This document shows, in pieces, positions 9,062 to 55,161 of a stretch of 58,004 bases of DNA. The notes beneath the pieces were generated by a model. It was given only the letters and a program-made list of their open reading frames with translations. It did no database searches and was not told the DNA's origin. Each line of letters begins with the position of its first letter. The stretch's first letter is position 1. This DNA comes from an uncultured Candidatus Saccharibacteria bacterium (GTDB lineage Bacteria > Patescibacteriota > Minisyncoccia > Phycocordibacterales > CAIRYW01): assembly GCA_964386665.1 (NCBI GenBank), contig CAYLQP010000004.1, positions 22,845 to 80,848 on the forward strand. The letters run 5' to 3'. The translations under genes and the position numbers were made by a program.

Positions 9062-9212
9062 TGTGGAAAAGTGGAGAACTCTTATTTATGTTGGTTTTTA
9101 ATATGTTTTTTGGTTTTTCTTAAGAAAGATATTGTTGATAAGTTGGTTTTGTTTGAATCTTATGTGTCTGTTGTTCACAGTTGTGGGTAATGTTGTACAT
9201 ATCTTTTCCACA
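9062..9212. promoter_or_regulatory. DnaA-box cluster in the dnaA-dnaN spacer (oriC part)
   Basis: tgtggaaaa (9062-9070), ttgttcaca (9171-9179), tgtgggtaa (9182-9190) and ttttccaca (9204-9212). Each has 1-2 mismatches to TTATCCACA in one or the other orientation. Confidence 0.6.
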
Positions 9213-9218
9213 GTTTTA

Positions 9219-10562
9219 TCACAGTAATGATCTTATTTTTGTTAATTCTTGAACAAGTTGGTTATTTTCTTTTAATTCTTCTTTTATTTTTTCGTATGAG
9301 TGAATAACTGTTGTGTGGTCTCTTCCCCCGAGCTTTTGTCCAATTGAGGGAAAGGAAATATTATAATCTTCTCGCAAAATATACATTGCGACTTGTCTTG
9401 GTTTCACCACTTCTTTTTTTCTTGATTTGTTTGATATGTCATCCTCTTCTATATTGTAAAAAGTAGCAACGGTTTTAATGATTTCTTTTATAGAGAAGTT
9501 TTTTGTTGGTTTTATAGTATCTTTTAGCAGGTGTTTTATCGTATTAAGATCGAGTTCTTGTCCTTTAAGTTCGGTTTGACAGATGATTGAGTTTAAAATA
9601 CCCTCTAATTCTCGAATATTTCCTTCGAGTGAGCTTGCTATGTAATCAATTACTACCTCAGAAAGAAAAAAGTTTTTTTGAGCCAGTTTTTTCTTGATGA
9701 TGGCGGCACGAGATTCATAGTCTGGTTGAGGAATATCAACAATCATACCGGCCACAAACCGAGATTTAAGTCTTGCTTCAAGGTCTTGAATGTAGTTTGG
9801 GTGTTGATCAGAAGAAAATACAATTTGCTTATTGTTTTCTTGAAGATAATTGAACAAATGGAATAATTCTTCTTGAGTTTTTTCTTTTTTTGTAAGGAAT
9901 TGTATGTCATCCATAATAAATACATCATATTTTTTGTATTTTTCTTTAAATGTTCCAACAGTACCATCTTGAACTGAGTTGATGTGATCACTATAAAATC
10001 TTTCTGATGAAACATAAAACACTTTTTTTTCTGGATGCTTTGTTTTTGAGTAGTTTCCTATTGCTTGAATAAGATGAGTCTTCCCTCTTCCCGTATCACC
10101 ATAGAAAAATAAAGGGTTATATGTTCCTGGTTTAGTTACAACAGCTTGTGCAGCTGCATGGGCCAGCTCGTTAAATGGGCCAATAACAAATGAATCAAAC
10201 GTATATCTTGGGTTTAAGTTATCATCCTTGTTGATATAAAAATCAGACAAAGGGAGCTCAGTTTCTTCTTTTTTTATTCTAAATGCATCGAGTTGTTGTT
10301 TTGCTTTTTGATCATTTTTGATGATTGTATATTCAATCCCTCGAACTGCCCCATCGGCATCTCGAAGAGATCTGAGAATTGATTTGTGGTATTTATTGCC
10401 AAGCCAGTCTTTTGCAAAAGTATTTGGTACACCAATAAACACAATGTTATCTTCTATTTTGACGATAAACGTGTCTTTGAACCAAGTGGTGAAATTGGCC
10501 TTTGAGATAGTGGCTTCTATTTCACTTAATACTCTTTGCCATAACGTATCTTTGTTTTCCAT
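9219..10562 (-). CDS. dnaA: chromosomal replication initiator DnaA
   Basis: AAA+ Walker A GDTGRGKTHL and a C-terminal DNA-binding domain (VAMYILRE...GGRDHTTVIHSYEKI). I placed the start at the MENKDTLWQRVL Met (10562) rather than the ORF-track 10592. Confidence 0.95.
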   Translation of the reverse strand: MENKDTLWQRVLSEIEATISKANFTTWFKDTFIVKIEDNIVFIGVPNTFAKDWLGNKYHKSILRSLRDADGAVRGIEYTIIKNDQKAKQQLDAFRIKKEETELPLSDFYINKDDNLNPRYTFDSFVIGPFNELAHAAAQAVVTKPGTYNPLFFYGDTGRGKTHLIQAIGNYSKTKHPEKKVFYVSSERFYSDHINSVQDGTVGTFKEKYKKYDVFIMDDIQFLTKKEKTQEELFHLFNYLQENNKQIVFSSDQHPNYIQDLEARLKSRFVAGMIVDIPQPDYESRAAIIKKKLAQKNFFLSEVVIDYIASSLEGNIRELEGILNSIICQTELKGQELDLNTIKHLLKDTIKPTKNFSIKEIIKTVATFYNIEEDDISNKSRKKEVVKPRQVAMYILREDYNISFPSIGQKLGGRDHTTVIHSYEKIKEELKENNQLVQELTKIRSLL

Positions 10563-10600
10563 ATACACAATTATACATTTAAAAAAAGACACAAAGAACT

Positions 10601-10672
10601 TGTGGATAGTTTATAAGTATGTTGATAACTTGTGGAAAAGGTGGATAACTTAATATATAAGATGTGGATTGA
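10601..10672. promoter_or_regulatory. DnaA-box cluster upstream of dnaA (oriC part)
   Basis: Four same-orientation boxes: tgtggatag (10601), tgtggaaaa (10631), ggtggataa (10640) and tgtggattg (10664). Their reverse complements are CTATCCACA, TTTTCCACA, TTATCCACC and CAATCCACA. AT-rich DNA follows up to rpmH. Confidence 0.7.
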
Positions 10673-17079: not shown

Positions 17080-17847
17080 CTACTTCCCCATCTCATTAGT
17101 GAGGGTTTTTTTAAGGAGACCAGTTATTTTTGACCCACCTCCTTTTTGAGTTGGAGTACCTTTTTGAAGAGTAAGGTTTTCGGTTTGTGGTTCTACAGAA
17201 GGTGTTGGTTGTGGTGCGGGTGTCTGAGGTGCTTTTTTTGTTGCTGGAACATAGGGTGCTGGTGTTTGTCTTTTTGTTGGTTGTGGTGTACTTGTACTTG
17301 GCTTATTTGTTTGAGTTGGAGTACCTTTTTGAAGAGTAAGGTTTTCGGTTTGTGGCTCTACAGGAGGTGTTGGTTGTGGTGTACTTATAATTGGCTTGTA
17401 GCTTTGAATTGATTTGGGGTTTAAGGTGTTTTGAGGTGTAGGAGGAGTATTTTCCTTATTTGATTGTTGGTAATTTTTTTGTACTTGAGTTTGTGTTGTT
17501 GTTTCTTCTTCTGTTTGCGAACTTGGTTGTTTTGTGTTCGCATTTTGAGCTGCTACTTGTTGTGCTTGGGTATTGGCTAATTGAGCTTTTTGTTTTTGAT
17601 CGTTTTTTAACAATCTTTTTTTAAATGGTCCATAATAAAAAGAGAGTCTAAGAAACCCTCGGACAAGTATACCTCCTAAGATTGTAAAATCAGCAGCAAA
17701 TCCCCAAAGAGCGATTTGTCTTACCCACCCTTTTCCTATTTTTGTGAGTCGTTCACCAGAAAAAAGTCTTCCAAAAAGAAACTCAAACATCATAATAACA
17801 CTGCCGATTATTGGTATTGGACAAAGAAGAAAAAGAAATATTTTCAT
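17080..17847 (-). CDS. membrane protein with a Pro/Thr/Gln-rich repeat tail
   Basis: 255 aa. The N-terminal region is hydrophobic. The tail contains two copies of PQPTP.VEPQTENLTLQKGTPTQ. Confidence 0.6.
   Translation of the reverse strand: MKIFLFLLCPIPIIGSVIMMFEFLFGRLFSGERLTKIGKGWVRQIALWGFAADFTILGGILVRGFLRLSFYYGPFKKRLLKNDQKQKAQLANTQAQQVAAQNANTKQPSSQTEEETTTQTQVQKNYQQSNKENTPPTPQNTLNPKSIQSYKPIISTPQPTPPVEPQTENLTLQKGTPTQTNKPSTSTPQPTKRQTPAPYVPATKKAPQTPAPQPTPSVEPQTENLTLQKGTPTQKGGGSKITGLLKKTLTNEMGK
17145..17381. repeat. two 72-bp direct repeats (17145-17216 and 17310-17381)
   Basis: Two mismatches in 72 bp with a 165-bp period. This is in-frame, equal to 55 aa. Confidence 0.85.
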
Positions 17848-17850
17848 AGG

Positions 17851-19662
17851 TTATTGTTCGAGGGCTTTTCGAGCTTCTCGCATTTGAAGTACTTGGGCAG
17901 GGTCAGATGTAATGATCTGATCTTCGGTATAAGAACCGATAATTTTGATTGCAACGTGTTTAAGTCCCGCAAAGAAGATCCCCTCCCCTACGTCTGATTC
18001 AAGCAAGAGGTACTTTTCTTCTTCTGTAAGGTTAAACGTTCTTTGAATTTCATCAATTGATGATGGGGATTGTTTGAGGAGAAGTTGGATAGAAGAGTTT
18101 GTGATAATAGGTCCTCCATAAGGTGATTTAAGGAAGTCTTCAACGTCTTGGGTAATAGTTGAAAGTGCGAGGTAGTATTTTCTTCCTCGTTTTGCAAGAC
18201 CAAGAAGGAATGATGCTGTGTCGTCTGATTTCATCATCCACCATGCCTCGTCGATCACAAGAAGTCGTTTTTTTAGTTTTTGTCGGATAGAGTTCCAAAT
18301 AAAGTGGGTCACAATATACATTGCAACTGGTTTAAGTTCGTCTTCCATATCTCGAAGTGAGAAAACAACAAATTTCTTGTTGATATCAACGTTTGTTGGT
18401 CTGTTGATAAATCCAGCCCACGTTCCTTTTGTATATTTTTCGAGACGTTGTACGAGGGAAGATCCTCCTTCCATTCCGGCGAGTACAAGTTCAAAGTCAG
18501 ACATAAGAGGTGGTTCAATTGCAGTGAAATCTGATGTTGGAGTGATATCTTTGAGTGCGTATGTTTCACTAATCGCTCGGTCAATGATTGAATCTTCTTC
18601 TGGAGTGAGTCCTCCAAGCATAATACGAAACAGACCAACAAGGTTGATGATGTTTGATCGAAGTACGTCGGCTGGTGATTCATCTTCTCGTGCAACCGGA
18701 AGATCAAATGGGTTGATGTGGTGTTCAGAAGTAAGAGAAATATTAAAATATCGCCCCCCTGTTGCTTCTGCCATATACTCATATTCTCGTTCAGGGTCGA
18801 TGACAATCACATCAATATCAAACATAAGCGAACGAAGGATTTCGAGTTTTGTACAATAACTTTTTCCCGCTCCGGCTTTGGCAAAGGTAACTGAGTTGTA
18901 GTTTTCGAGAGAAAATCGGTCAAACAAAATAAGGCTTGAGTTGTGACGGTTAACTCCATACAGAATCCCTTTATCTGAAGTGAGGTCAAAAGAAATAAAT
19001 GGAAATATACTTGAGAGTGGTGATGAGTTTAGTTTTGAATTAACAGCAAGCTCATCTTGTCCAAGAGGCGCGACACTTCTAAACCCTTGTTCTTGTTGGA
19101 AGAGCGCTGGTTTGATGTATACGAGTTTTGATTCGAGAATTGAAACGATTTCAGATTCGATTTTGTCTATTTCATCTTCTGTTTCTCCGTAAATAGTAAA
19201 ATAAAGTCCTACATCAAAGATTCTTTCTTGGGCTTGTTGAAGCTGATCTCGGAGGCTTTCGAGGTCCTGGTAGGCAGTATCAAGAACTGGATCTCGCACC
19301 AACCCCTTTTCTTCTCTGTCACTTATTTGACTTTGTACCTCTGCCACCTTTTTCTTAAATTGGCGTAGTACTTGAGCAGTATCGATTGGATGGATAAATA
19401 TCGAAATATCAAATATTTTGTCTAAGTTAATGATTGGTGCAAACCAGCTCTCTGTTAAGAAACGCGGGTAAGAGATAACAAAAAAGGTTCTTGCAATCTT
19501 GCTTCCAAGATTGAGTTCTTTTGAAGAAATCTTGAGTGCTGATGGTGCGAGTACATCTTCAAGTTCAAGAACACCTGATTGATAAATTTCCTGTGGCAAA
19601 ATTGCAGTCACAGGTCTTTCAAGTTCTTCGTTCTTTTTTCCAAATAAACCAAAAAATGCCAT
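17851..19662 (-). CDS. virB4: VirB4/TraC-family type IV secretion ATPase
   Basis: 603 aa with Walker A FAKAGAGKSY, Walker B LLVIDEAWWMM and a C-terminal TQDVEDF region. Confidence 0.85.
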   Translation of the reverse strand: MAFFGLFGKKNEELERPVTAILPQEIYQSGVLELEDVLAPSALKISSKELNLGSKIARTFFVISYPRFLTESWFAPIINLDKIFDISIFIHPIDTAQVLRQFKKKVAEVQSQISDREEKGLVRDPVLDTAYQDLESLRDQLQQAQERIFDVGLYFTIYGETEDEIDKIESEIVSILESKLVYIKPALFQQEQGFRSVAPLGQDELAVNSKLNSSPLSSIFPFISFDLTSDKGILYGVNRHNSSLILFDRFSLENYNSVTFAKAGAGKSYCTKLEILRSLMFDIDVIVIDPEREYEYMAEATGGRYFNISLTSEHHINPFDLPVAREDESPADVLRSNIINLVGLFRIMLGGLTPEEDSIIDRAISETYALKDITPTSDFTAIEPPLMSDFELVLAGMEGGSSLVQRLEKYTKGTWAGFINRPTNVDINKKFVVFSLRDMEDELKPVAMYIVTHFIWNSIRQKLKKRLLVIDEAWWMMKSDDTASFLLGLAKRGRKYYLALSTITQDVEDFLKSPYGGPIITNSSIQLLLKQSPSSIDEIQRTFNLTEEEKYLLLESDVGEGIFFAGLKHVAIKIIGSYTEDQIITSDPAQVLQMREARKALEQ

Positions 19663-19670
19663 ATATAATT

Positions 19671-20306
19671 TTATTTTACTAATGTGCTTCCAATATTCAT
19701 TGGCTTCTCTACTTCTCCAGGGTTAAAGGTTTTATAGTAAAGCTCAATAAGTTCTTCTGTTCCAAGTGGCACTCCTCGAACTCCAAGTCGAGACAATCCT
19801 TGTACTACGACTTCCATTCGCTGAAGAAGTTGAGTTCTATTTTCTTCAAAACTATCCGCGTCTCCTTTATGGTTTGTCTTCTGCATTATACCAGAAAGAA
19901 TCCCTTTTTTTGTTTCAATGATTGCTGGAGTATATGGAATGATAACAAAAAATGTTTTTGTCATAATATTTACTGAGCTTGTGAAATTCTTGATGAAGTC
20001 GATGTATTCGTTGGTTTGTATCCGAAGAAGTTCGTTTTTTTGTTCTTTTGCGACGTCTTCGAGAAGACCAATATAAGGTTTTATATCAAGGCGTCGTGAT
20101 TGGGCAGTAATTTGAATAGAAAAGTTAAGTGAGTTAAGAAAGTTTTGAAATTGATAGATGATTGCAGTCTGTTCATCAACACTTTTGAGTGCAAAGTTAA
20201 TAGACGAAGTCATTACAACAGCACGCATTGAACCATCTTGCATAATTGCAATTCCGTCACGAATCTCTTTTATAGGTACAAAACTTTGGGTGCTTTTTGA
20301 TTGCAT
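19671..20306 (-). CDS. T4SS-operon protein, possibly a detached VirB4 N-terminal-like module
   Basis: 211 aa, 8 bp upstream of virB4. The start (FVPIKEIRDGIAIMQDGSMRAVVMTSSINFALKSVDEQTAII) resembles the start of Gram-positive VirB4 homologues. The resemblance was judged by eye only. Confidence 0.5.
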   Translation of the reverse strand: MQSKSTQSFVPIKEIRDGIAIMQDGSMRAVVMTSSINFALKSVDEQTAIIYQFQNFLNSLNFSIQITAQSRRLDIKPYIGLLEDVAKEQKNELLRIQTNEYIDFIKNFTSSVNIMTKTFFVIIPYTPAIIETKKGILSGIMQKTNHKGDADSFEENRTQLLQRMEVVVQGLSRLGVRGVPLGTEELIELYYKTFNPGEVEKPMNIGSTLVK

Positions 20307-20308
20307 AT

Positions 20309-20791
20309 TTATTTATATGGATTATACGCGTTATTTGCTTTTTTTGCATCTTGATATACGTTGTTCTCGTTTGTGTACTCTTTTGCGTCTGGCATTGTTT
20401 CATTGATATCTAGGTTCCAGGTGAGTTCTCGTAGTTTTGATTTTGAGAGTTTTGGTACATAGAGTTTTGAAACATTTGCGCCATTCACTATGACATTTGT
20501 TTTAGGAGCTTTTTTCTCTTTTTTCCAAATATATAACTTGTGAGTGAAAAAAAACTTTACTGCTGAAATAACTGTCTCGAGAAAAGGCTTGTTGTTTACC
20601 TTGTAAAACGCTAGTGCAACTGAGAATGCGGCAATAGGAAGAATAATAAGAAATGCAATAAAACTTGGGAGTAATCTATATACCAAAAAACACATTCCTC
20701 CCCCACCCACAAGATATACAAACTGTTTGAATGTAAGTGGTCCAAAGATCTTGTCTTCGATTTCGATAAATTGTGGGACTTGATATTGCAT
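20309..20791 (-). CDS. PrgI-family / VirB3-like small membrane protein
   Basis: 160 aa. MQYQVPQFIEIEDKIFGPLTFKQFVYL is followed by two TM helices, and the gene lies just upstream of the VirB4 genes. Confidence 0.6.
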   Translation of the reverse strand: MQYQVPQFIEIEDKIFGPLTFKQFVYLVGGGGMCFLVYRLLPSFIAFLIILPIAAFSVALAFYKVNNKPFLETVISAVKFFFTHKLYIWKKEKKAPKTNVIVNGANVSKLYVPKLSKSKLRELTWNLDINETMPDAKEYTNENNVYQDAKKANNAYNPYK

Positions 20792-20809
20792 AAAACTTTT
20801 TTGATTCTT

Positions 20810-21589
20810 TTATATAGCTTCTCGATACGGATCAATCTTCTTTTCTGGAGCATTTGTTGGTGTTACTTGAGTTTCTGGAAGAGGTGTTGTTTCTTGTTTT
20901 GGTGTGATTGCTTGTTCTATGGGCGCCTCTTTTTTTGGGATGACTTCAACTGGGGCCTTTTCAATGAATGAATGCATAGTGACAATGTTAGTGAGCTTTT
21001 CGTTATCGATATGACTTAAGATTTTTTCACCCAGGGTTTTAAGTTCGTTGGTGAGAGGAGATGTTTCAACGGTAGGTTCTGGCGATGTTGTGATTGTTTC
21101 TTGTGCCACGAGAGGTTCCTCTGTCTTCTTTTCCCCTTGGATTACTTTCCGCACTGTTGCTTTCGTTGGGTTCTCTATTTCTGCGAGGAGATCCTTGGGA
21201 TTGAGTCTGGTTTCATCTTCTTCATCTTCTTCGTGGATATGAATGAGTGTTTGAGGTTTGAAAGGGCTCTCGTGTTTGTATGTCTCAACCAAGATATGTT
21301 TGATTGGTTCAAAGACCGTATCGTTGATGTCTCGGACAATAGTACTTGCATCAAGAAGTGAAAGATGGAGTGCGCTTGAGATTTCTGTTTCGAGGTTTTT
21401 TGTGGCAATAATACCCATAACAGTATCCATAACAATATCGTGTAATATACCCGCTTCATCGATATGAAGATGGTGTTTTTCTGCAAGAGCAAATATTTTT
21501 TCACTTTGCTCTGATGATGTACAAAACTCCTGAATCTCTTTTGGGAGTTTTGCAAATAGTTCTCTGTATTGTTCTCGGGTAAGTTTCAT
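20810..21589 (-). CDS. acidic soluble protein of the T4SS-like operon, function unknown
   Basis: 259 aa with no TM segment and a Glu/Thr/Pro-rich C-terminal half. Confidence 0.55.
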   Translation of the reverse strand: MKLTREQYRELFAKLPKEIQEFCTSSEQSEKIFALAEKHHLHIDEAGILHDIVMDTVMGIIATKNLETEISSALHLSLLDASTIVRDINDTVFEPIKHILVETYKHESPFKPQTLIHIHEEDEEDETRLNPKDLLAEIENPTKATVRKVIQGEKKTEEPLVAQETITTSPEPTVETSPLTNELKTLGEKILSHIDNEKLTNIVTMHSFIEKAPVEVIPKKEAPIEQAITPKQETTPLPETQVTPTNAPEKKIDPYREAI

Positions 21590-21593
21590 AATA

Positions 21594-24422
21594 TTAAGGG
21601 TTTGAAGGGTTTATTGGTGGAATAGATGGAGGAGGTGGAACTCCAGTGCCTGGAGGAGGTACCGCAGGGTTAGGTGGTGTGTGAGAATTATTTTGAGATC
21701 CACCACTTGGAGGAGGTACCGCAGGGTTAGGTGGTGTGTGAGAACTATTCTGAGATCCACCACCACTACCAAATGGATTAGCTGGTTGTGGAGAAGTGGA
21801 TGCAGCAGACTGTCTATTTTGTCTTGTTTGTCTGTTTTGTGTTCTTGTTTTCATTGCGTCTTGTGCAATACCCTCTCCTTGCACACCCATTTCTGTTCCA
21901 TAGTATCGTGCCATATTTTTTCCGACTCGTCCTGTTGTAAAGTCTTTTGGTAACATTTTTTCTTCGTAATATTCAATTGCGTGATCAAGCGTTGAATCAT
22001 TACTTTCATTAAAGGTATTTGTTTCGCCAATACTTCGTAAGTATGCATTTATCTTAGTTCTAAATGCTCTCTTTGATGCTAAGTCGTTTGTATCAACTGC
22101 GTGTTTATATTCTTGAAGTCTTTTTATTTGTGGATCCATTGAACCACTTCCAAGGTCGTTATAATTTTGTTCATTTAATCGGCCGCTCCGTTGAAGTTGT
22201 TCAAAAAGGTTTCCTTGTATGAGATCCGCAACCATCGGGTTTGTAAGCTGCTCGGTCGAAAGTCCTTCTTGTTGTTTAGTGTTAAGGTTCGCAAAATACT
22301 TACGCAGTGCTACTCCATCGTCGCTATTTCTCAGTTTGAGCTGATTATCTTGTATCTTTGTTGTAACAGTCTTTAATTCATTTTCTGCTTTTGTAATATC
22401 AGCTTGATCTGCACCAGATCTTTTTAAAGCATCTAGTTTTTTTGTTAGTTCTTCTCGTTTTCCATTTAACCCTTTAAATTTTATTTTTGTTCCATCAGCT
22501 TGTGTTTCTTCAAATTCTTCATCTAATTCTTTGAATTCTTTAGTAGATTCAAGTTTTTTCTGCATCTCATCGTATCGTTGTCTATGTACAGGAAGAGCCC
22601 CTTCTTGTTTTCGTTTAAGCGCATCTTGTTGGTTAGGATCAAGACGACCAAGAAGTTTGTTTTTTGCTTTTTCTATTCTTGCTTTTTCTTTTGTATCTCC
22701 TTCTGCTTCTGCCGCCTTTATTTTTGCATCAAATTGCTCCATCATTTCTGCCTGATCATCAAGTTTCATTGCTTCCCATGCCTTTTCAAGTGCAACTCGA
22801 ACGTTAAGATCCTTTTCTGCTTTTAAGGTCATTTCAGCTAAGAATTCTGCTTGTGCAGCTGGTTCTCCTCGCATTTCATACAACGCTTCTGCAATACCAT
22901 GTTGCTTTTCATCAAACTCTTCTTTGAAGCTATTACCTTCTCCTACTTTTGCATTTACCCCTGCTTTCAACATACTTTTTACAGCACCAGCTCCTGCGCC
23001 CAATATACCACCTTTTGAAATCATCTTTTCCATTCCGGTTTTAAATTGACCTCTCCAACCATGACCGACTGTACCTGTTTTATCTTTTCCTTCATAAAGT
23101 GCATAAGCAGCTTTCCCAATTGTTCGTCGGACAGCTGCTTGTACTGGTCGTCCCCCAAGGTTAGCCTTGAGTTTTTTGTATGCTCCCATTGCTGCACCTG
23201 CTCCACTGGCCCCCATCTTCTCTCCTGCTACAAGGGCCATAATAAAGAAGTTGATGACTATGATGTAATTCACGACAGTTGGAATATCAAACCAAAACCC
23301 AGTATCTTTTCTATTGAGTGTACTTTGAAAATTGGGATCAAGCATTATATGAAAGGTTATCCAGATAATAGCAACAAATATAGGTGCATAAAATGACTCT
23401 GCAATCAGTTTTTCCCACCACTCATGTGCATATCCTTCAGTCTTATGTAGTAAACTTCCTGCAAACGCAAGTGAAGAGGTCATTATAAGAATCATAATGG
23501 TGACGAGCCGTTTTATAAATATAAGTGTGGCAGCCAAAAAGATACAAAAAACGAAAAACATTGCAATACTTCCCATTAAAAAGATGGTTCCAGCATTACT
23601 CTTTTGGGCAAAAGCTGTGGCACCAGACATATCTGCTCCTTTTGCATCTCCTTTTTTGTAGTCAGCAAATAATTTTTGAAATTGAAAAGAGGCCATAAAT
23701 GCACCTCCAATACCTCCCTTTGTAGTAGAAGGGCCATCATATGTTTTTGTAAATAAATCTGCTATATTATCTGTTTCTGCGCTAGGTTGAATTTTTTTAT
23801 AAAAACTAATTGCAAGAATATTTGAACTATCAACCACAACCTTAGCAAAAAACATACTAAAGTTGATAAGAATGGCGATAAGTACTAGTTTACTAAGCGT
23901 ATGTTTTACTCCATGTTCATTAAGTCCAAGAATTGTTGATATTGCTAAGTAAATAAGAATGAATATAAGAAGAATGTTAGTGAAATCTCGAAACACTTTC
24001 CATACGGCGCTAATGGCACCAATCTTATTTATTGTTTCTGCCATCCCAATCACTGTAAATTCAAAAACTATATTGAAAAGCCAAACACTAAATCCAAGTA
24101 TCCATGCTACCATCGCCAGTATGTAGTAAAATACTTTTTCAAAACAGTTCCATAGGCTTGAGTTATTATAGGCCTGACCATCAGGAAGCAGTACATTTTT
24201 TTCTCCAAGTGTTTCAAAAACACAAAGTCCGTTGTCATTATTTTTATTAGCTTGGACTGCCGCAATCTGACCATCAACAAACTCCTTGGGCATCATTGCC
24301 ATTGCAAGCACCTTGGGACCTGTATTTGGGATAACAATATGAAGCCAAAAAAGAGAAAAAGCAAAAACCAAAAAGATTTTTTTTATCAATAAGGTTTTGT
24401 TTTTTTCTCTTTTTTCAAACAT
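21594..24422 (-). CDS. large polytopic membrane protein, VirB6/TrbL-like by topology and context
   Basis: The N-terminal ~460 aa carry many TM helices. A long Lys/Glu-rich coiled-coil-like region and a Pro-rich tandem-repeat C-terminus follow. I moved the start to the MFEKREKNK Met (24422) so it does not overlap the divergent PAP2 gene. Confidence 0.55.
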   Translation of the reverse strand: MFEKREKNKTLLIKKIFLVFAFSLFWLHIVIPNTGPKVLAMAMMPKEFVDGQIAAVQANKNNDNGLCVFETLGEKNVLLPDGQAYNNSSLWNCFEKVFYYILAMVAWILGFSVWLFNIVFEFTVIGMAETINKIGAISAVWKVFRDFTNILLIFILIYLAISTILGLNEHGVKHTLSKLVLIAILINFSMFFAKVVVDSSNILAISFYKKIQPSAETDNIADLFTKTYDGPSTTKGGIGGAFMASFQFQKLFADYKKGDAKGADMSGATAFAQKSNAGTIFLMGSIAMFFVFCIFLAATLIFIKRLVTIMILIMTSSLAFAGSLLHKTEGYAHEWWEKLIAESFYAPIFVAIIWITFHIMLDPNFQSTLNRKDTGFWFDIPTVVNYIIVINFFIMALVAGEKMGASGAGAAMGAYKKLKANLGGRPVQAAVRRTIGKAAYALYEGKDKTGTVGHGWRGQFKTGMEKMISKGGILGAGAGAVKSMLKAGVNAKVGEGNSFKEEFDEKQHGIAEALYEMRGEPAAQAEFLAEMTLKAEKDLNVRVALEKAWEAMKLDDQAEMMEQFDAKIKAAEAEGDTKEKARIEKAKNKLLGRLDPNQQDALKRKQEGALPVHRQRYDEMQKKLESTKEFKELDEEFEETQADGTKIKFKGLNGKREELTKKLDALKRSGADQADITKAENELKTVTTKIQDNQLKLRNSDDGVALRKYFANLNTKQQEGLSTEQLTNPMVADLIQGNLFEQLQRSGRLNEQNYNDLGSGSMDPQIKRLQEYKHAVDTNDLASKRAFRTKINAYLRSIGETNTFNESNDSTLDHAIEYYEEKMLPKDFTTGRVGKNMARYYGTEMGVQGEGIAQDAMKTRTQNRQTRQNRQSAASTSPQPANPFGSGGGSQNSSHTPPNPAVPPPSGGSQNNSHTPPNPAVPPPGTGVPPPPSIPPINPSNP
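21651..21764. repeat. 2 x 57-bp tandem repeat
   Basis: Units at 21651-21707 and 21708-21764 with three mismatches. They encode GGSQN.SHTPPNPAVPPPS twice at the C-terminus of the VirB6-like protein. Confidence 0.85.
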
Positions 24423-24476
24423 AAGGTAATATAATAAGTATACAATATTTTTTTTAAAAAAAGTACCAAAAAACAA

Positions 24477-25232
24477 ATGAATCAATCAAAAACTAAGTAT
24501 TACTTATTGATAATTTTAATTTTTCCTCTTGTCATTTTTCTTACTTTAGGGTACAAAAATATTAATTCTTTTACTTTTTCTAAAACAGAAGAATGGGACC
24601 AAAATTTAATACATTCTATACAAAGCAATCGGATGCTCATTAATAATACAGTTTCATATATTAATTTAGGCACTCCCCCAAAAAATTCTTCAAAAGTGAC
24701 TCAAGATGAGCTTGCATATCTGATTAGTCTTAAAAAAGAAAGAACAGAAGAGAAGGTGAAGGAAATAAAAAGCGAAATAAATATAGAATACTGGATTTTT
24801 GATAATAAGTTTTTCTACGAGTATTTACAAGATAAGCAATATTCTGAATTTTTATTATCAGAGTTATCGACGTTGTACCCAATCACATTATATCAAAAAC
24901 AAATTTTTGATCGGGCTAGACCTTATATTTTAGATTCCAATGTTGATCCAATACTCTATCCTAAACATCCTGCATATCCAAGTGGTCATGCTACCCAGGC
25001 ATATTTTTTGGCTGAATTATTTTCACTTATTAATCCCTCTAAAAAAGAAATATATTTTGCCAATGCAAAGGTAATTGCCCATAATAGAGAAATTGCGGGA
25101 GTCCATTACCCAAGTGATAGTCAGGCGGGAAAAGAACTGGCTCAACAATACTTAAAGTTTAGGTTAAGTGATAATTCGTTTATTACAAACCTGAAAAAAG
25201 CAAAAGATTCTTTATCTCTGGAGAAAAATTAA
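24477..25232 (+). CDS. PAP2-superfamily phosphatase
   Basis: 251 aa with an N-terminal TM. PAP2 motifs are RARPY, PSGHA and NREIAGVHYPSD. Confidence 0.8.
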   Translation: MNQSKTKYYLLIILIFPLVIFLTLGYKNINSFTFSKTEEWDQNLIHSIQSNRMLINNTVSYINLGTPPKNSSKVTQDELAYLISLKKERTEEKVKEIKSEINIEYWIFDNKFFYEYLQDKQYSEFLLSELSTLYPITLYQKQIFDRARPYILDSNVDPILYPKHPAYPSGHATQAYFLAELFSLINPSKKEIYFANAKVIAHNREIAGVHYPSDSQAGKELAQQYLKFRLSDNSFITNLKKAKDSLSLEKN

Positions 25233-45304: not shown

Positions 45305-45775
45305 TTAATGGTGTCCTCCTCCACCGTGCCCCCCGCCATGTCCGTGATCCTCTTTATGGCTACTACCACCCCCTCCTCCACCACCTCCTTTTCCAGATAC
45401 TCTATCAATAGAAACCAGATCAAATGAACTGAAAAAAACCCAAACAGCCGCAAGTATTGTTGCAACCTTTCCACCACCCCATAAGAACCCCCCTCTTCCT
45501 TTCCACATATGTGTAAGTGCTTCTTTAGGTTTTCGTGTTTCTATGTGAGGTTTTGAGTGTCCGTGACTATGTTCACTATGCTCCCCTTCTTCGGAATGAT
45601 GATCGTGTTCTCCTGCTTCCGCGTGTAGTGCACTACGTACTTCCCCTACTCTCGCAGCTGCTCCATCTTCTGGATGATGTGTTCGTGGTGGGTGTTCAGG
45701 CGCTCCACTGCTTGCAGGTGGTGTTGGAGGATGTTCGTGGGCAGGAGTTGGTGTTGGAGGATGTTCGTGACTCAT
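45305..45775 (-). CDS. His/Pro/Gly-rich single-TM protein, putative metal-binding
   Basis: 156 aa. HEHPPTP occurs twice, there is a run HDHHSEEGEHSEHSHGH, one TM (VATILAAVWVFFSSF), and a C-terminal GGGGGGGGSSHKEDHGHGGGHGGGGHH. The gene is visibly more GC-rich than its neighbours. Confidence 0.6.
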   Translation of the reverse strand: MSHEHPPTPTPAHEHPPTPPASSGAPEHPPRTHHPEDGAAARVGEVRSALHAEAGEHDHHSEEGEHSEHSHGHSKPHIETRKPKEALTHMWKGRGGFLWGGGKVATILAAVWVFFSSFDLVSIDRVSGKGGGGGGGGSSHKEDHGHGGGHGGGGHH

Positions 45776-48632: not shown

Positions 48633-50117
48633 CTATTTAACATTATGATTCTTTCGGATTTTTTGTACCTCTTCTTCGTCCGCTTTTTCTTTTTTTGCTT
48701 TTCCTTTTAGACCAAGTTCTTTCAATTGTGTAAGTGGTAGTTTCAACAGCTCCTTTGATCTTTCGAGTAAGTATTCTTCTGTATTTTTTTCTGGCTCTTC
48801 GAGAACTTCTTCAAGAAGTGCGTGTAATATAAACCCAAGTGCTGGTGAAGGTGGAACAGCTAATTTTTCCATCAAAATTGTTCCATTGACTTTGAGTTGC
48901 CCAACCGATACAGGATCTCGAAGTGCTTCTTCAATCATTGAGTGGTACTTACGGAGTCTAAAAGGTGCTTCTTTGGGTCGTCCTGTTCCAATACGGTCAC
49001 AAATACGTACGTCCATTAGGTCCCAAATATTTTCTTTTCCAACATTTACAATCATTCTTCGTACAGCTGAAAGTGTAATTTGTTCTGTATCAGAAAAGAA
49101 CATATGCCACCTAACAAGCTTGGTTACTTTATCTATTGTGTCTTTTGGGAATTTGAGTCGGTCGAGAATCTTTTTTGTCATTCGTGCTCCAACAACTTCG
49201 TGCCCATAAAACGTGTATTCTTTTTTTTCTTCCGAAAATCGACGTGTCGCTGGTTTGCCAATATCGTGCAAAAGCGCAGAAAGCCTTATTTCAAAAGGAT
49301 AATTTTTGTCTGCCGCGTGTTTTAATGATCGAAGCAAGTGTTCAAATACATCAAATGAGTGCGCTTTGTTTTGAGTGCATCCTACCCCTTCTTCAAGTTC
49401 AGGAATAATGTACTGAAGTAGATTAAGTTTTTTGAGCATCAAAATCGCTCGCATTGGATCAGAAGTATTCAGCATTTTTGAAAATTCGTCTCGAAGTCTT
49501 TCGGCAGAAATGTTTTGTAGTAGTGATCCACATTCAAAAATAGCCTTTTCTGTTACTTCATCAATCTCAAAATCAAGTTGTACTGCAAGTCGAATTGCTC
49601 GCATAATTCGCAAACCATCTTCATTAAACCGTAAATGAGGATCCCCTACTGTTTTGATGAGCTTTAGTTTCAAATCCGTTTTTCCATCAAAGAGATCAAC
49701 AACTTCTATCCCCTCTTTCTTTTCTCGAACCGCAATTGCATTGATAGTAAAATCTCTTCGTTTGAGGTCATCTGATAGATTCGTGCTAAACGATACTTCA
49801 TCAGGATGTCTATTGTTTGAATATATTCCTTCTATTCGATACGGTGTCGCCTCGACTACCTTTAGGGTTTCATCTATTCCCTCTTCTTCATTTACAATAC
49901 CAACTGTTCCAAACTTGTTTTCATAAAAAGTGTGTGGGAAAAGAGCCTGAATTTCTTCTGGAGTAGCATTTGTAGTAACATCCCAGTCTTTTGCTTTTTG
50001 ACCAAGAAACAAGTCTCGTACACATCCACCCACTAGATACGCTTCAAAACCAGCTTCCTCAATCACTTGAGTAACTTTCGAAATTTCTTTCGGAATAATG
50101 ATGTTTTTGTAGTTCAC
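48633..50117 (-). CDS. cca: CCA-adding enzyme / poly(A) polymerase-family nucleotidyltransferase with an HD domain
   Basis: 494 aa with a GGCVRD nucleotidyltransferase motif and the HD motif LHDIGKP. Confidence 0.85.
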   Translation of the reverse strand: MNYKNIIIPKEISKVTQVIEEAGFEAYLVGGCVRDLFLGQKAKDWDVTTNATPEEIQALFPHTFYENKFGTVGIVNEEEGIDETLKVVEATPYRIEGIYSNNRHPDEVSFSTNLSDDLKRRDFTINAIAVREKKEGIEVVDLFDGKTDLKLKLIKTVGDPHLRFNEDGLRIMRAIRLAVQLDFEIDEVTEKAIFECGSLLQNISAERLRDEFSKMLNTSDPMRAILMLKKLNLLQYIIPELEEGVGCTQNKAHSFDVFEHLLRSLKHAADKNYPFEIRLSALLHDIGKPATRRFSEEKKEYTFYGHEVVGARMTKKILDRLKFPKDTIDKVTKLVRWHMFFSDTEQITLSAVRRMIVNVGKENIWDLMDVRICDRIGTGRPKEAPFRLRKYHSMIEEALRDPVSVGQLKVNGTILMEKLAVPPSPALGFILHALLEEVLEEPEKNTEEYLLERSKELLKLPLTQLKELGLKGKAKKEKADEEEVQKIRKNHNVK

Positions 50118-50181: not shown

Positions 50182-50253
50182 GCATCCGTGGTGAAATGGA
50201 TATCACAACGGTCTTCGGAACCGTTTTTGGGGGTTCGAGTCCCTCCGGATGCA
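50182..50253 (+). tRNA. tRNA-Arg (UCG)
   Basis: 72 nt with the anticodon loop CTTCGGA and the T-loop TTCGAGT. No CCA is encoded. Confidence 0.9.
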
Positions 50254-50300
50254 CTAAAATACAAAACCACCGCTTTGTCGGTGGTTTTGTATTTTAGTGC
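50251..50300 (+). terminator. 22-bp perfect hairpin overlapping the tRNA-Arg 3' end
   Basis: gcactaaaatacaaaaccaccg / cggtggttttgtattttagtgc with a ctttgt loop. Confidence 0.5.
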
Positions 50301-50310
50301 AGACGCAACA

Positions 50311-50666: not shown

Positions 50667-50834
50667 CAAAAGAATAATTTGATGTCCCTGACCTTTATTT
50701 TGAATAACCACACATTGTCCCCAATAATCCCCTAAAATTGTTGAAAACTGGGGATAAACCTGTGAATATGTGTAAAAGACACTCTTTTATAGGTCAAAAA
50801 GTCAAAATAATCTAGCACACTCTCTTTTTGTAGT

Positions 50835-51074
50835 TGTCTTACGTGTTACATTATAAGGGTTTTGGGTTTCTTACTATATTTTGAGGTTATATTCGATTCT
50901 TTTGAGGCACATCGAGTGTCTGAGTTTCAAACCTGTTGATATGTTTGGCAAAAGTTTTCACGTGTAACACAAAATATGTTTCATATGAAACATATCGATA
51001 TCTAATATTAAGTTTCACGTGAAATAGTGAACTTCTTGTTCGGGATATCTGGTGATATAATTTCACATGAAACA
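50835..51074. other. five parS-like palindromes (intergenic part of the array)
   Basis: TGTCTTACGTGTTACA (50835-50850), GTTTTCACGTGTAACA (50954-50969), TGTTTCATATGAAACA (50977-50992), AGTTTCACGTGAAATA (51011-51026) and AATTTCACATGAAACA (51059-51074), compared with the consensus TGTTNCACGTGAAACA. Confidence 0.7.
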
Positions 51075-51152
51075 GTAGGCAGTAGGTGTTTTCTTTGGAT
51101 TTCTCTTAATAGCAGGGATATTTTATAAAGGACATTATAAAAGACATATAAA

Positions 51153-51536
51153 ATGGCTCAACATAACGATATTGGAAGGCTAGGAGAAGAAATAGCGACT
51201 CAATTCCTTTTAAACAAGGGTTTCAAGATTGTAGACCGTAATTATCTTCAAAAAAGCGGCGAAATAGACATTGTTGCTGTTTACAAGGGAAAAACTCATT
51301 TTATTGAAGTAAAATCAGTGTCTTGTGATCTGAGAAACGTTTCACGTGAAAACCTCCCCTTGCCGGAAGAAAATGTTACACGTGAAAAGTTACGAAGGCT
51401 TCGAAATGTGGTTACAGAGTATATGTTAAGAAAAAGGGTGGAAGACTGGACTTTTGATGTATGTGCAGTGTTTATAGACCGTACCACCAAAAAAGCAAAA
51501 GTCCGTTTCCTTGAAAACGAACTTTTGCCAGAGTAA
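51153..51536 (+). CDS. yraN: YraN-family (UPF0102) PD-(D/E)xK endonuclease-like protein
   Basis: 127 aa with GRLGEEIATQFLLNKGFKIVDRNY...GEIDIVA...HFIEVKS. Confidence 0.8.
   Translation: MAQHNDIGRLGEEIATQFLLNKGFKIVDRNYLQKSGEIDIVAVYKGKTHFIEVKSVSCDLRNVSRENLPLPEENVTREKLRRLRNVVTEYMLRKRVEDWTFDVCAVFIDRTTKKAKVRFLENELLPE
51338..51389. other. two parS-like sites inside the yraN-like gene
   Basis: CGTTTCACGTGAAAAC (51338-51353) and TGTTACACGTGAAAAG (51374-51389). Confidence 0.6.
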
Positions 51537-51579
51537 CTTTCATTTTTGTTTTTTTGTGTTAAACTATGGAACATAAAAA

Positions 51580-51628
51580 CGGGATGTAGTGTAATGGTAG
51601 CATAAGTCTTTGGGGTCGTGTTCATTGT
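51580..51628 (+). pseudogene. tRNA-Pro-like 5' fragment abutting the intact tRNA-Pro
   Basis: cgggatgtagtgtaatggtagcataa matches the first 26 nt of tRNA-Pro at 22 positions. The anticodon stem cannot pair and there is no T-arm. Confidence 0.55.
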
Positions 51629-51699
51629 CGGGGTGTGGTGTAACGGTAGCATAAATGCTTTGGGAGCATTCAGTCCGAGTTCAAATCTCGGCACCCCGA
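51629..51699 (+). tRNA. tRNA-Pro (UGG)
   Basis: 71 nt with the anticodon loop TTTGGGA and the T-loop TTCAAAT. No CCA is encoded. Confidence 0.9.
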
Positions 51700-51750
51700 C
51701 AAAGAACATGACCAGATGTATGGGATACATCTGTGGCCCGAAGGGATTTT

Positions 51751-51781
51751 GTCCGAGTTCAAATCTCGGCACCCCGACAAA
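51751..51781 (+). repeat. 31-nt exact duplicate of the tRNA-Pro 3' end (copy of 51673-51703)
   Basis: gtccgagttcaaatctcggcaccccgacaaa occurs twice, 78 bp apart. The second copy ends at the base before the methyltransferase ATG. Confidence 0.9.
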
Positions 51782-52537
51782 ATGAAAAAAAATAAAACCT
51801 CTTGGGGCGATGTATCACATTGGTATGACGGTGTGGTAAATGATGATGATTCATATCAACAAAAGGTGATTTTGCCGAACCTGATTCGAGTTCTCAACTT
51901 GCAAAAGACTGACAACCTTCTTGATATTGCTTGTGGACAGGGTTTGTTTTCACATGAAACAGCGAAATCTGTTTCATGTGTAACAGGATTTGATATTGGA
52001 AAGGATCTTGTTGCGATTGCAAACAAACGAGCGTCAAAAAACGAGAAGTTTCTGGTTGCTAGTGCTGATGGAGCATTTCCTTTTGTAACAGGGCAGTTTG
52101 ATAAAGCTTTTTGTGTTTTGGCACTTCAAAACATCAAGAACCTTGATAACGTTTTACGTGAAACATCACGGGTACTTAAGGAAGGAGGGAAGTTTGTGTT
52201 GGTTTTGAACCATCCAACTTTTAGAATCCCAAAACACAGTGACTGGGGATTTGATGAAGAGAAAAAAGCTCAATATCGAAAAGTGTTTGAATATATGTCT
52301 GAAAAAACAGTTCCAATCGATATGAACCCTGGAAAAAAACACTCGACACAAACCGTTTCGTTTCATCGACCGCTTCAAGTGTATTTCAAGGCTTTTGCCA
52401 AGAATGGATTCGCTGTTACACGACTTGAAGAATGGGTTTCACACAAAGAAAGTCAAAAAGGTCCTCGCAAAACCATCGAAGACAAAGCTCGCAAAGAAAT
52501 CCCTTTGTTTATGTGTCTGGAAGTTGCTAAAATATAG
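51782..52537 (+). CDS. class I SAM-dependent methyltransferase (module A)
   Basis: I placed the start at the MKKNKTSWGD Met, because the ORF-track start at 51716 would read through the tRNA fragment. Motif I is LLDIACGQG. The C-terminal HRPL...NGF...IPLFM segment is shared with the 54403-55161 paralogue. Confidence 0.8.
   Translation: MKKNKTSWGDVSHWYDGVVNDDDSYQQKVILPNLIRVLNLQKTDNLLDIACGQGLFSHETAKSVSCVTGFDIGKDLVAIANKRASKNEKFLVASADGAFPFVTGQFDKAFCVLALQNIKNLDNVLRETSRVLKEGGKFVLVLNHPTFRIPKHSDWGFDEEKKAQYRKVFEYMSEKTVPIDMNPGKKHSTQTVSFHRPLQVYFKAFAKNGFAVTRLEEWVSHKESQKGPRKTIEDKARKEIPLFMCLEVAKI
51946..51985. other. two parS-like sites inside the methyltransferase gene
   Basis: GTTTTCACATGAAACA (51946-51961) and TGTTTCATGTGTAACA (51970-51985). 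Confidence 0.6.
52150..52165. other. parS-like site inside the methyltransferase gene
   Basis: CGTTTTACGTGAAACA has two mismatches to the consensus. Confidence 0.6.
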
Positions 52538-52540
52538 ATA

Positions 52541-53569
52541 ATGATAAACAAAATCGTTACACATTTTCGTCCTCATGCTGATGAGCTTATTGCTCTTATG
52601 TTTCTGAAAAATTTCCCTGAAGGGGAAGTGCAGTTTCCTGGAATAAAAAACGCAAAGATAGAATTTTTGTCTACTGGTAGGCTTGGAGAAGGGAAAACAT
52701 ACAAAGACTTTCCAGACAGGATTTTTCTAGGTGTTGGAGGGGGGCCGTTCGATGAACATGAGACAGATGGACAAGAGCGAAGTGAAGGGGAGGTGTGCGC
52801 AACCCTTGTTGCCAAAGCTCTTGGTCTCGAAAATATGCCGGAACTTCAACCAATCTTACAAATTGTAAAAGATGAAGATTTGAGCGGAGCAAAAGAAAAA
52901 GATTCTCTTTCTGTAATGATAAAATTTCTACACTCTTGTTTTAAGGATGACTATGAAACCATTTATAAATGGTCAGAAATGGCATATATGGCTCATATTG
53001 GTTTAGATTCGATCATCAGACCATTTACCCTTGAATCAGCACGTATGCTTCTGAAAGAGCATAAAGATTTTTTGTGGTGGAACGAAGTAATTGAAAAAGC
53101 ACTTACGTATCAAGATGAAGAATATCAAAAAGCACTAAAAGAATTTGATGAGAAGGCCTTAAAAGAAAGTATCGTTGCGTATGATGGTAAACAAGTCGCT
53201 TTTTCGTTTGTCGAGTCGGATAATGAAGAAATGGGTAAAGCAGCTCGAAGTCGAATGTCGCAACTTATTGTTCAGAGGAATTCTCGCGGTAATGTGTTTA
53301 TTTTTACATATCGAAAAAGAAACTTAGATCTTACATCTGTTGTGGTGTTGCTTCGACTTGCTGAGCAACATTTTAGCGGGGAGATAAAAGTTAAAGATAC
53401 AGAAACACTTTCACAAACAGGAAACGTTGCAGATATTCCTTGGTATTTGTTTTATACGAAAGATTCCATTTTTAATGGAAGTTTGACGACAAAAGATGTG
53501 CCACCAACAAAAATCCCAAAAGAAAAACTGATTTCAATCATAAAAGAAGGGATTTCTAAGAGGTTTTAA
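52541..53569 (+). CDS. divergent MYG1/UPF0160-like metal-dependent hydrolase (module A)
   Basis: 342 aa. IVTHFRPHADELIALMFL and GVGGGPFDEHE resemble the MYG1 THxGxFHADE / DVGG..FDHH motifs but in altered form. Confidence 0.55.
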   Translation: MINKIVTHFRPHADELIALMFLKNFPEGEVQFPGIKNAKIEFLSTGRLGEGKTYKDFPDRIFLGVGGGPFDEHETDGQERSEGEVCATLVAKALGLENMPELQPILQIVKDEDLSGAKEKDSLSVMIKFLHSCFKDDYETIYKWSEMAYMAHIGLDSIIRPFTLESARMLLKEHKDFLWWNEVIEKALTYQDEEYQKALKEFDEKALKESIVAYDGKQVAFSFVESDNEEMGKAARSRMSQLIVQRNSRGNVFIFTYRKRNLDLTSVVVLLRLAEQHFSGEIKVKDTETLSQTGNVADIPWYLFYTKDSIFNGSLTTKDVPPTKIPKEKLISIIKEGISKRF

Positions 53570-53581: not shown

Positions 53582-54358
53582 TCACTCGCTGGGCGGTGAA
53601 CTAAGGAAAGAACATGCATCACGAATCGCGGCTTCCTCTGAAGGATAGATTGCCACGTTGTTTGGCAACCACTTTACTTGGGTTGCGGTTTGGGGGATTG
53701 TACCTCGTCCACCAAGTGACCATCTTGTACCTCGTCCTGAGATTACAAACTGAACCTCAGGAGACACACAAGTTTGCCAGTTCCTTGGAACATGAGTCTG
53801 CTTTGTAAGCAATACTCTGTTTTCACAGGTTCTTGCAAACTGAGAAAGTTGACCTTGAAACATCTTTGCTTTCTCGAACTTGGTTACGAGACCGAGCATT
53901 ATCTGATAAGCAATCCAAAGTGCAGTTTCAAATTTGGTATCCTGTGATCCATCTTGTTCATTAATAATACCAATGGCAGCTGAGAAGCTTAATCCCACAT
54001 CATGCACAGGTTTACCAGTATCTCGCTTACTGATCGGACCAAAAATATGTTTCAATAGAGTATTTTTATACCAAGGATTAGCAGCAAAGAGTATGTGAAC
54101 GAGCGATGCTTCACCAATGCTTTTATCTTGATGATGATCAAAGTTGTTTAGTGTAGGGTTATGAACCCCACCAACATCAATGACTGCGACTGTTTGATCA
54201 GAAAGTTCTTGAGACAAGTCTCGTCGTGTTCTTTCGATGTGTAACTCACCTGGTTTTTTTTGCAAAAAGACCAGTAAAAATGCGATCGCAAACACTTCGT
54301 CAGCGTGAAATCGTCCACTATGCGTAACGATCCGCTGGATCAGGTGCAAATTATTCAT
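53582..54358 (-). CDS. MYG1/UPF0160-family metal-dependent hydrolase (module B)
   Basis: 258 aa with IVTHSGRFHADEVFAIAFL and VIDVGGVHNPTLNNFDHHQ. Confidence 0.7.
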   Translation of the reverse strand: MNNLHLIQRIVTHSGRFHADEVFAIAFLLVFLQKKPGELHIERTRRDLSQELSDQTVAVIDVGGVHNPTLNNFDHHQDKSIGEASLVHILFAANPWYKNTLLKHIFGPISKRDTGKPVHDVGLSFSAAIGIINEQDGSQDTKFETALWIAYQIMLGLVTKFEKAKMFQGQLSQFARTCENRVLLTKQTHVPRNWQTCVSPEVQFVISGRGTRWSLGGRGTIPQTATQVKWLPNNVAIYPSEEAAIRDACSFLSSPPSE

Positions 54359-54402: not shown

Positions 54403-55161
54403 CTAAAGAGTTAGTCTAAATATCATAAAAAGAGGAATCTTGGTGTGTATGTGGTAGAAACTTTTTTCTTTTTCTGCGACCCAAGCAGGAGGAACTGGTT
54501 CAATAAATTCTTTTATTTGTAAACCATTTTTTAGGATTTCATTTATAATTGAAGAAATAGGTCGATGATAATACTCAACTTTAAATCTTCCCCTAAACCA
54601 AGAATCCTCTATTTTTCTTTCTCCGAGATAATCTCCAATCACATCTCCTGTGAGTCCATTTTGAATATATCGAATATATCCAAGTAAAAATATTTCTCTC
54701 TCTTGTTCACGTTTGATTTCTGAACCAAATCTAACTGGATGATTGGTCGAAATGATAATCTCACCATTTTCTTTGAGTGCCTTTTTCATCTTTTGAAGTG
54801 TTTTTGTCCAAGAGGGAACATAGTGCATTGTAAGGTTTGAAACAATCAGATCAAACGGAATATTAAACTCCATTTCTTCCATATCAGCAACAAAGAAATC
54901 TATCTCCGGATAGCTTTTTTTTGCAATATCAATAAGTGCAGGAGAGAGATCGATCCCAACTACTTTTTTTGCACCGAGCTCAAGCATTTTCTGACATTCT
55001 TCACCAGATCCACATCCAACACATAAAACAATCTTATCTTTTATATCTCCTATTGCATCAAACAATGCGGGTTTTATGAGATATTCGTGAACAATATTTT
55101 TACCATCACGCATTCGTTGTGCCCATTCTGATGCAAAATCTTCGTAATGATCTTTTTTCAT
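54403..55161 (-). CDS. class I SAM-dependent methyltransferase (module B)
   Basis: 252 aa with motif I VLCVGCGSGEE. The C-terminal HRPI...NGL...IPLFM segment is shared with 51782-52537. Confidence 0.8.
   Translation of the reverse strand: MKKDHYEDFASEWAQRMRDGKNIVHEYLIKPALFDAIGDIKDKIVLCVGCGSGEECQKMLELGAKKVVGIDLSPALIDIAKKSYPEIDFFVADMEEMEFNIPFDLIVSNLTMHYVPSWTKTLQKMKKALKENGEIIISTNHPVRFGSEIKREQEREIFLLGYIRYIQNGLTGDVIGDYLGERKIEDSWFRGRFKVEYYHRPISSIINEILKNGLQIKEFIEPVPPAWVAEKEKSFYHIHTKIPLFMIFRLTL

Follow-up and report, generated by a model that had tools for sequence, protein, structure and literature searches.

Results

Genetic organization of the yraN-cca locus

The 58-kb stretch of the 80.8-kb contig CAYLQP010000004.1 analyzed here (58,004 nucleotides; hereafter the window) carries, next to the cca gene for a CCA-adding enzyme, a compact array of 16-bp palindromes that resemble parS, the site recognized by ParB (Spo0J in Bacillus subtilis). 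The gene order at the array is cca, two transfer RNA (tRNA) genes (tRNA-Arg and tRNA-Gly), a 480-bp spacer, yraN, tRNA-Pro and a gene for a class I S-adenosylmethionine (SAM) methyltransferase (Table 1). Four solid sites and one doubtful copy lie in the spacer upstream of yraN, and the remaining copies are distributed over yraN and the methyltransferase gene. The window belongs to a genome of Paceibacteria (Parcubacteria, candidate phyla radiation). The closest matches of the CCA-adding enzyme of the window are 65% identical proteins from metagenome-assembled genomes (MAGs) of Zambryskibacteria, Taylorbacteria and Paceibacterota. An Rfam scan of the region and of the window recovered nothing but tRNAs.

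The genes dnaA and dnaN are located 40 kb from the array. Since dnaA is bracketed by two clusters of near-consensus DnaA boxes, four at 9062-9212 and four at 10601-10648, the array lies about 40 kb from the likely replication origin (oriC). The distance between dnaA and cca amounts to 32 kb in one relative (ERZ25039521:contig_9631, 596 kb; dnaA at 575,888, cca at 541,962-543,458), which agrees with the origin-proximal placement proposed in an earlier note on this DNA.

Table 1. Sites and genes of the yraN-cca locus and the likely origin, with positions in the window
Feature	Position	Strand	Context	Evidence
dnaA and two flanking DnaA-box clusters (likely oriC)	9062..10648	-	dnaA at 9219-10592	Pfam DnaA
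cca (CCA-adding enzyme)	48633..50117	-	without site in this genome	Pfam
Doubtful parS-like copy TGTCTTACGTGTTACA	50835..50850		intergenic	4 mismatches to strict consensus; PWM <6.3 bits
parS-like site GTTTTCACGTGTAACA	50954..50969		intergenic, upstream of yraN	PWM 18.5 bits
parS-like site TGTTTCATATGAAACA	50977..50992		perfect palindrome, CATATG core, 23 bp from the GTTTTCACGTGTAACA site	PWM 22.4 bits
parS-like site AGTTTCACGTGAAATA	51011..51026		intergenic, 12-bp core perfect	PWM 20.2 bits
parS-like site AATTTCACATGAAACA	51059..51074		intergenic, ~80 bp upstream of yraN start	PWM 18.1 bits
yraN (UPF0102 predicted nuclease)	51153..51536	+	hosts two sites	Pfam PF02021, E = 1e-18
parS-like site CGTTTCACGTGAAAAC	51338..51353		within yraN, encodes V-S-R-E-N	PWM 18.7 bits
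parS-like site TGTTACACGTGAAAAG	51374..51389		within yraN, encodes V-T-R-E-K	PWM 18.8 bits
Class I SAM methyltransferase gene	51782..52537	+	hosts three sites	Pfam Methyltransf_11/25
parS-like site GTTTTCACATGAAACA	51946..51961		within methyltransferase gene, F-S-H-E-T	PWM 18.3 bits
parS-like site TGTTTCATGTGTAACA	51970..51985		within methyltransferase gene, V-S-C-V-T	PWM 22.6 bits
parS-like site CGTTTTACGTGAAACA	52150..52165		within methyltransferase gene, V-L-R-E-T	PWM 19.3 bits
PWM, position weight matrix.

Enrichment of parS-like sites in the window

The palindromes were compared with the strict palindromic consensus TGTTTCACGTGAAACA and with the B. subtilis Spo0J parS consensus TGTTNCACGTGAAACA (N-consensus), and were scored with a position weight matrix (PWM) that had been built solely from sites of 80 related genomes before it was run over the window. 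First-order Markov simulated sequences served as controls for the PWM and 100 dinucleotide shuffles as controls for the N-consensus. The top nine PWM positions in the window were nine of the ten 16-mers listed in the earlier note (18.1-22.6 bits), while the tenth-best position reached 13.6 bits, i.e., chance level as compared to the mean maximum of 12.9 bits in the simulated controls. With the N-consensus and at most three mismatches, 21 strand-hits were found in the window as compared to a mean of 2.7 and a maximum of 9 in the shuffles, none of the 100 shuffles reaching 21. With the strict palindrome, at most three mismatches gave nine positions in 50800-52200 and none in the other 56.6 kb, bearing out that comparable copies are missing from the rest of the window. 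The two N-consensus matches outside the array (31518 and 46950) have broken cores and do not exceed chance level.

The coordinates and sequences of all ten 16-mers were correct as first listed; nine of them are solid, but the copy at 50835 is doubtful as a real site because of its four mismatches and its low PWM score, about 0.1 matches of such quality being expected in the region by chance. The nine solid copies differ from the N-consensus at one to three positions, the 12-bp core being perfect in two of them and carrying one mismatch in five. They are packed into 1.2 kb, about one per 135 bp, and the spacings between successive copies, the doubtful one included, are 119, 23, 34, 48, 279, 36, 572, 24, and 180 bp.

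Conservation of the locus among related genomes

Scanning ±10 kb around cca in 80 species-representative genomes of Paceibacteria for the motif yielded 285 parS-like matches, 283 of which fell within 2 kb on either side of the cca start, and essentially none were found in the remaining ~0.85 Mb of flanks. At least one site was present at the yraN-cca locus in 76 of the 80 relatives. The order xerC-xth-cca is retained together with an upstream yraN gene of opposite orientation, yraN and cca being divergent in 60 of the 80 genomes. Since relatives carry sites at the same locus, the array in the window is this genome's version of a clade-wide feature. By contrast, no sites were present at the loci of more distant YraN homologues that belong to other lineages. 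The motif is that of parS, it is confined to one origin-proximal locus, and this locus is conserved throughout the clade.

Across the clade, positions 1/16, 5/12, and 8/9 of the 16-mer vary, the others are invariant, and the flanks resemble background; the cores seen were CACGTG, CACATG or CATATG. The palindromic profile together with the background-like flanks indicates a protein-binding palindrome and not a repeat element. Perfect copies of TGTTTCACGTGAAACA were found at the same locus in five relatives, whereas the best site had at least two mismatches to the strict consensus in 46 of the 76 site-bearing relatives. The lack of a perfect consensus copy in the window is thus correctly described in the earlier note, but it is not unusual in this clade.

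With nine sites as compared to a clade mean of 3.6, the window is at the top of the distribution. The gene cca is the anchor of the cluster in the clade and carries one to six sites in many relatives; intragenic sites make up about three quarters of the total in the clade and reach 1.5 kb inside cca, whereas in the window all sites are on the yraN side. The methyltransferase gene that hosts three sites in the window had no tblastn match at this locus in the 80 relatives and was present only in the window and in L087, the metagenome stretch described below.

Two observations concern the spacing of sites and the assembly of the locus. Pairs of sites 23-25 bp apart, centre to centre (about 15 pairs), recur at non-orthologous places in many genomes, among them 50954/50977 and 51946/51970 in the window and others in L003-L082, L087, and L093, and a 48-bp pair inside cca is common to about 24 genomes; such recurring close pairs may reflect cooperative loading or local duplication. 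The contigs of the two closest cca homologues (71-72% identity; L111 1-133 and L113 1-107) end 100-130 bp upstream of cca. Both stop at the expected beginning of the tRNA genes and the array, and assemblies thus seem to break in this region.

Selection on the sites at the DNA level

The only relative found with the yraN-tRNAPro-methyltransferase arrangement was L087, a 1.5-kb metagenome stretch recovered in a JGI scan with YraN and starting 24 bp before yraN. Its YraN is 52% and its methyltransferase 73% identical to that of the window, and all of the five intragenic sites covered by the comparison are found at the same positions. In these otherwise diverged genes, 16 of 16 bases are identical for the sites at 51374, 51946, and 52150; at 51970, L087 carries TGTTTCGCGTGTAACA where the window has TGTTTCATGTGTAACA. 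Counting all positions, 76/80 are identical inside the sites and 677/1045 outside (Fisher p = 7e-10), and at third codon positions, 28/30 (93%) are identical inside and 143/345 (41%) outside (Fisher p = 1.6e-8). The orthologous yraN and methyltransferase genes of L087 therefore keep the sites at synonymous positions as well.

A second line of evidence comes from cca, in which about a dozen alignment positions carry sites in subsets of genomes and where the protein follows the DNA: site-bearing genomes encode VGSRVTK or VGSRETR, SFHVKQN, and EVTHETP, as compared to VGARMTK, GIGVEQN, and EVTKTPA in the others. The sites are under purifying selection at the DNA level, coding regions included, as the earlier note had suggested from the intragenic copies. 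Individual sites appear to turn over among cca, yraN, the spacer and, in this lineage, the methyltransferase gene as a probable new insertion, whereas the cluster would be maintained as a unit.

The five intragenic copies of the window all read x GTT TCA CGT GAA ACx, and the single codon phase pointed out earlier was confirmed by the reading-frame coordinates. Of the three phases, the one starting at position 1 contains TGA. Throughout the clade, 164 intragenic copies are in the same phase, 44 in the other open phase and 11 in the third, many of them being orthologous; counted by position and not by genome, about 14 are in the same phase and 3 in the other. The simplest reason for this bias is that V-S/T-R/H-E/V-T fits surface segments of proteins more easily than F-H-V-K, and we see no need for a further mechanism.

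Discussion

A probable chromosomal centromere

The array in the window is probably a chromosomal centromere, in which nine (possibly ten) degenerate parS sites would load a canonical ParB. This interpretation follows from the motif, from its palindromic profile with background-like flanks and from the confinement of the sites to one locus 30-40 kb from dnaA. The core of the earlier note, namely that these are clustered, origin-proximal parS sites selected at the DNA level, is supported and survived every test run here. Judged by the sequence that it would have to recognize, the reader of the sites is probably ParB. Dimers of a canonical ParB (Spo0J-type, a CTP-dependent clamp) would load at the sites and spread from them over a few kilobases, which would give rise to a partition complex that organizes and segregates the origin region and that might be moved by ParA and/or load SMC, the loading of SMC being probable. 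The many weak neighboring sites might act additively as one loading zone. The clamp-loading and spreading mechanism of ParB has been reviewed, as has the wide variation between species in the number and clustering of parS sites (PMC7333895).

Several observations weigh against this interpretation. Every site in the window deviates from the strict consensus at two or more positions and from the N-consensus at one at least. Chromosomal parS sites usually lie beside parAB, which is not so here. In the window, i.e., 48 kb upstream and 6 kb downstream of the array, no ParB or ParA was detected among open reading frames (ORFs) of at least 110 amino acids, neither by Pfam (about 50 ORFs) nor by the regular expressions GERRxRA and KGGxGKT, nor by tblastn and phmmer with B. 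subtilis Spo0J, the query sequence of which had been checked against PDB 6sdk; the absence of parA and parB from the window that the earlier note had remarked on is hereby confirmed. The search for both proteins was likewise negative for the ±10 kb around the cluster of the 80 relatives (regular expressions and Spo0J searches), for 23 yraN-bearing metagenome loci and for the ±10 kb around dnaA on three contigs of two relative genomes, the related loci searched for ParB amounting to about 1.4 Mb with about 20-60 kb visible per genome. A database search with Spo0J matched only Bacillus proteins and did not reach Paceibacteria, and a literature search found no report of ParABS in Patescibacteria or Parcubacteria. 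That a ParB is present in the clade is suggested by the sites themselves. About one quarter of bacteria are without ParABS, and some lack ParA only (PMC7333895).

Comparison with known parS clusters and centromeres

In Myxococcus xanthus, 22-24 parS sites are located within about 3 kb and about 35 kb from oriC (PMC3899335), and the array in the window is similar in that dense 16-bp parS palindromes occupy one origin-proximal locus tens of kilobases from oriC. With 22 sites in 3 kb, the M. xanthus cluster is equally dense (PMC3899335), so the density of the array is not unusual, contrary to the claim of the earlier note. The M. xanthus cluster is bound as a unit by ParB, whereas here ParB is predicted from the sites; moreover, the M. 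xanthus sites are near-consensus and 4 kb from parAB, whereas in the window all copies are degenerate, half of them lie inside genes and no parAB is found within 48 kb on one side and 6 kb on the other. It is this distance from parAB in which the array really departs from known clusters.

The recognition sequence TGTTNCACGTGAAACA, with A/T tolerated at position 5, is shared with the parS of B. subtilis Spo0J, as is the tendency of sites to lie within coding sequences and in the part of the chromosome near the origin. However, the ten parS sites of B. subtilis, one of them in spo0J itself, are scattered over hundreds of kilobases, whereas the sites visible in the window and within ±10 kb in the relatives are packed into 1-3 kb. 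Caulobacter crescentus has 7 parS sites in about 10 kb and Corynebacterium glutamicum has 10 in about 35 kb; in these origin-proximal clusters, strong sites are mixed with weak, degenerate ones, and together they serve as one zone for ParB loading. They differ from the array in the window in being 10-30 times less dense and in lying beside parAB.

Many protein-binding repeats within about 1 kb are also characteristic of plasmid and phage centromeres (F sopC, P1 parS, iteron-type parC). Those consist of regular direct repeats with conserved flanks, are specific for their own ParB and adjoin a par operon, whereas the copies in the window are irregularly spaced (23-572 bp), show no conservation beyond the 16-bp palindrome and have the chromosomal type of motif. 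A plasmid-type centromere or iteron array was rejected on account of the irregular spacing, the background-like flanks and the lack of par genes in the window. Noc-binding sites (NBS, ATTTCCCGGGAAAT) are palindromes of similar size that are read by a ParB paralogue; they have a CCCGGG core and are dispersed over the chromosome away from the terminus. This assignment was rejected as well, since the sites here match parS, have a CACGTG, CACATG or CATATG core and occur together at one locus.

Alternative explanations

It is improbable, yet to be weighed, that the palindromes are read by a non-canonical protein, e.g., a lineage-specific helix-turn-helix protein or a ParB-like paralogue, the ancestral centromere sequence having been kept while ParAB was replaced or lost, and that the cluster serves SMC loading only, nucleoid organization or replication control. 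The failure to find ParB or ParA in the window, around the cluster in the relatives and around dnaA would be in line with such a reader, as would the prevalence of degenerate sites in the clade and the fact that ParA-less species are known (PMC7333895). However, the sequence is exactly that of a ParB site, perfect consensus copies occur in five relatives, and because only a small part of each genome is visible, absence from view is weak evidence. To our knowledge, no other protein family recognizes the parS 16-mer. The clade might be without ParA; that it is ParB-less we consider unlikely, and equally there is little chance that a conserved and selected parS cluster exists here without canonical ParAB, with a different or highly derived reader or with a ParB that is used for SMC loading or nucleoid organization only. 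If this were true, a major uncultured radiation would provide the first example of a parS centromere that is uncoupled from ParB.

We regard it as very unlikely that the sites instead form an unusually large operator array, at which a transcription factor would regulate the tRNA genes and the two divergent promoters of yraN and cca. The five copies in the 480-bp spacer, the last of them shortly before the yraN start codon, and the divergent promoter region that all relatives have at this locus would fit operators. Nevertheless, the preponderance of intragenic sites in the clade, located up to 1.5 kb into cca and also in an unrelated methyltransferase gene, would not be expected of operators, and the sequence equals the parS consensus. 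A consensus promoter scan, in which promoter-like sites were no commoner than in shuffles and none lay over the array, revealed no promoter over the sites beyond chance, and a primary role as operators was dropped on this result. ParB complexes are able to silence nearby promoters, and an operator role is thus not exclusive of a centromere.

Finally, the copies can hardly be non-functional debris, whether left behind by a short repeat or a mobile element, produced by a recurring V-S-R-E-T peptide, or due to chance: the array does lie amid three tRNA genes and a rearranged tRNA-Pro, 4 kb from a tyrosine recombinase gene, and its five coding copies are all in one phase, but the flanks of the 16-mer are not conserved, half of the copies are intergenic, the host proteins are three unrelated ones, synonymous positions are conserved across 52-73% protein identity, one locus is used across 80 species and shuffles never reach the observed count. 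An origin from a repeat or a miniature inverted-repeat transposable element was rejected, as only the 16-bp palindrome is shared.

Implications of a parS cluster at yraN-cca

A parS centromere cluster is a known kind of element, and most likely it is this element that is found here in a radiation with none described; in the literature searched, no description of chromosome segregation sites in the candidate phyla radiation (CPR)/Patescibacteria was found. It stands out for its conserved position at yraN-cca, for its detachment from parAB and, with clear evidence, for the reshaping of host proteins by the sites. The centromere interpretation would place the probable centromere of a whole class of ultra-small bacteria at yraN-cca, about 30-40 kb from oriC. 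The approximately 300 sites in 80 species represent a natural data set on the clustering and turnover of parS; why parS sites cluster and in what way they turn over was left open by the review of the field (PMC7333895). In cca, a non-coding function rewrites the amino acids of an essential enzyme at about a dozen positions, which makes this gene a clean example of overlapping DNA-level and protein-level selection. Furthermore, the cluster could be used as a marker of origin-proximal DNA in fragmented MAGs of Paceibacteria.

Additional features of the window

Within the array region, the tRNA-Pro(UGG) gene is unusually arranged. A complete copy at 51629-51700 is located between partial copies of its own sequence, the 5' half at 51580-51615 (81% similar) and a 3' part at 51746-51781 (94%), and the sequences directly adjoining it (51614-51635 and 51692-51713) are complementary to each other at 91%. 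In the fold of the 210-nt stretch (-81 kcal/mol, z = -5.6), a long stem at the anticodon position of an outer tRNA-like scaffold carries the inner tRNA, whereas L087 has a plain single tRNA-Pro. This rearrangement may be what is left of a duplication or an integration, or it may represent a nested tRNA. A perfect inverted repeat of 23 bp around a 6-nt loop (TGCACTAAAATACAAAACCACCG / CGGTGGTTTTGTATTTTAGTGCA; 50250-50301) starts within the last bases of tRNA-Arg and may represent a strong terminator or a processing hairpin.

On the origin side, a type IV secretion-like cluster (13953-24485; PrgI, TraG/VirB4-like ATPase, type IV secretion system pilin and SLT transglycosylase) adjoins jag-yidC-rnpA-dnaA-dnaN. 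The same layout was found in two relatives (L083 1-8112; L084 1-8109), which makes it a conserved block next to the origin rather than a mobile island. Next to xerC, the minus strand carries a 156-amino-acid ORF (45305-45775) that is rich in His, Pro, and Gly, with HEHPPTP repeats, a run of nine Gly and a C-terminal GGHGGGGHH, and that has no Pfam match. Just downstream of the array, two convergent MYG1/UPF0160-like genes are located at 52541-53569 and 53582-54358, of which the second matches Pfam MYG1_exonuc and the first, without a Pfam match, shares the N-terminal H-x-D-E motif; they are followed by a second SAM methyltransferase gene at 54403-55161.

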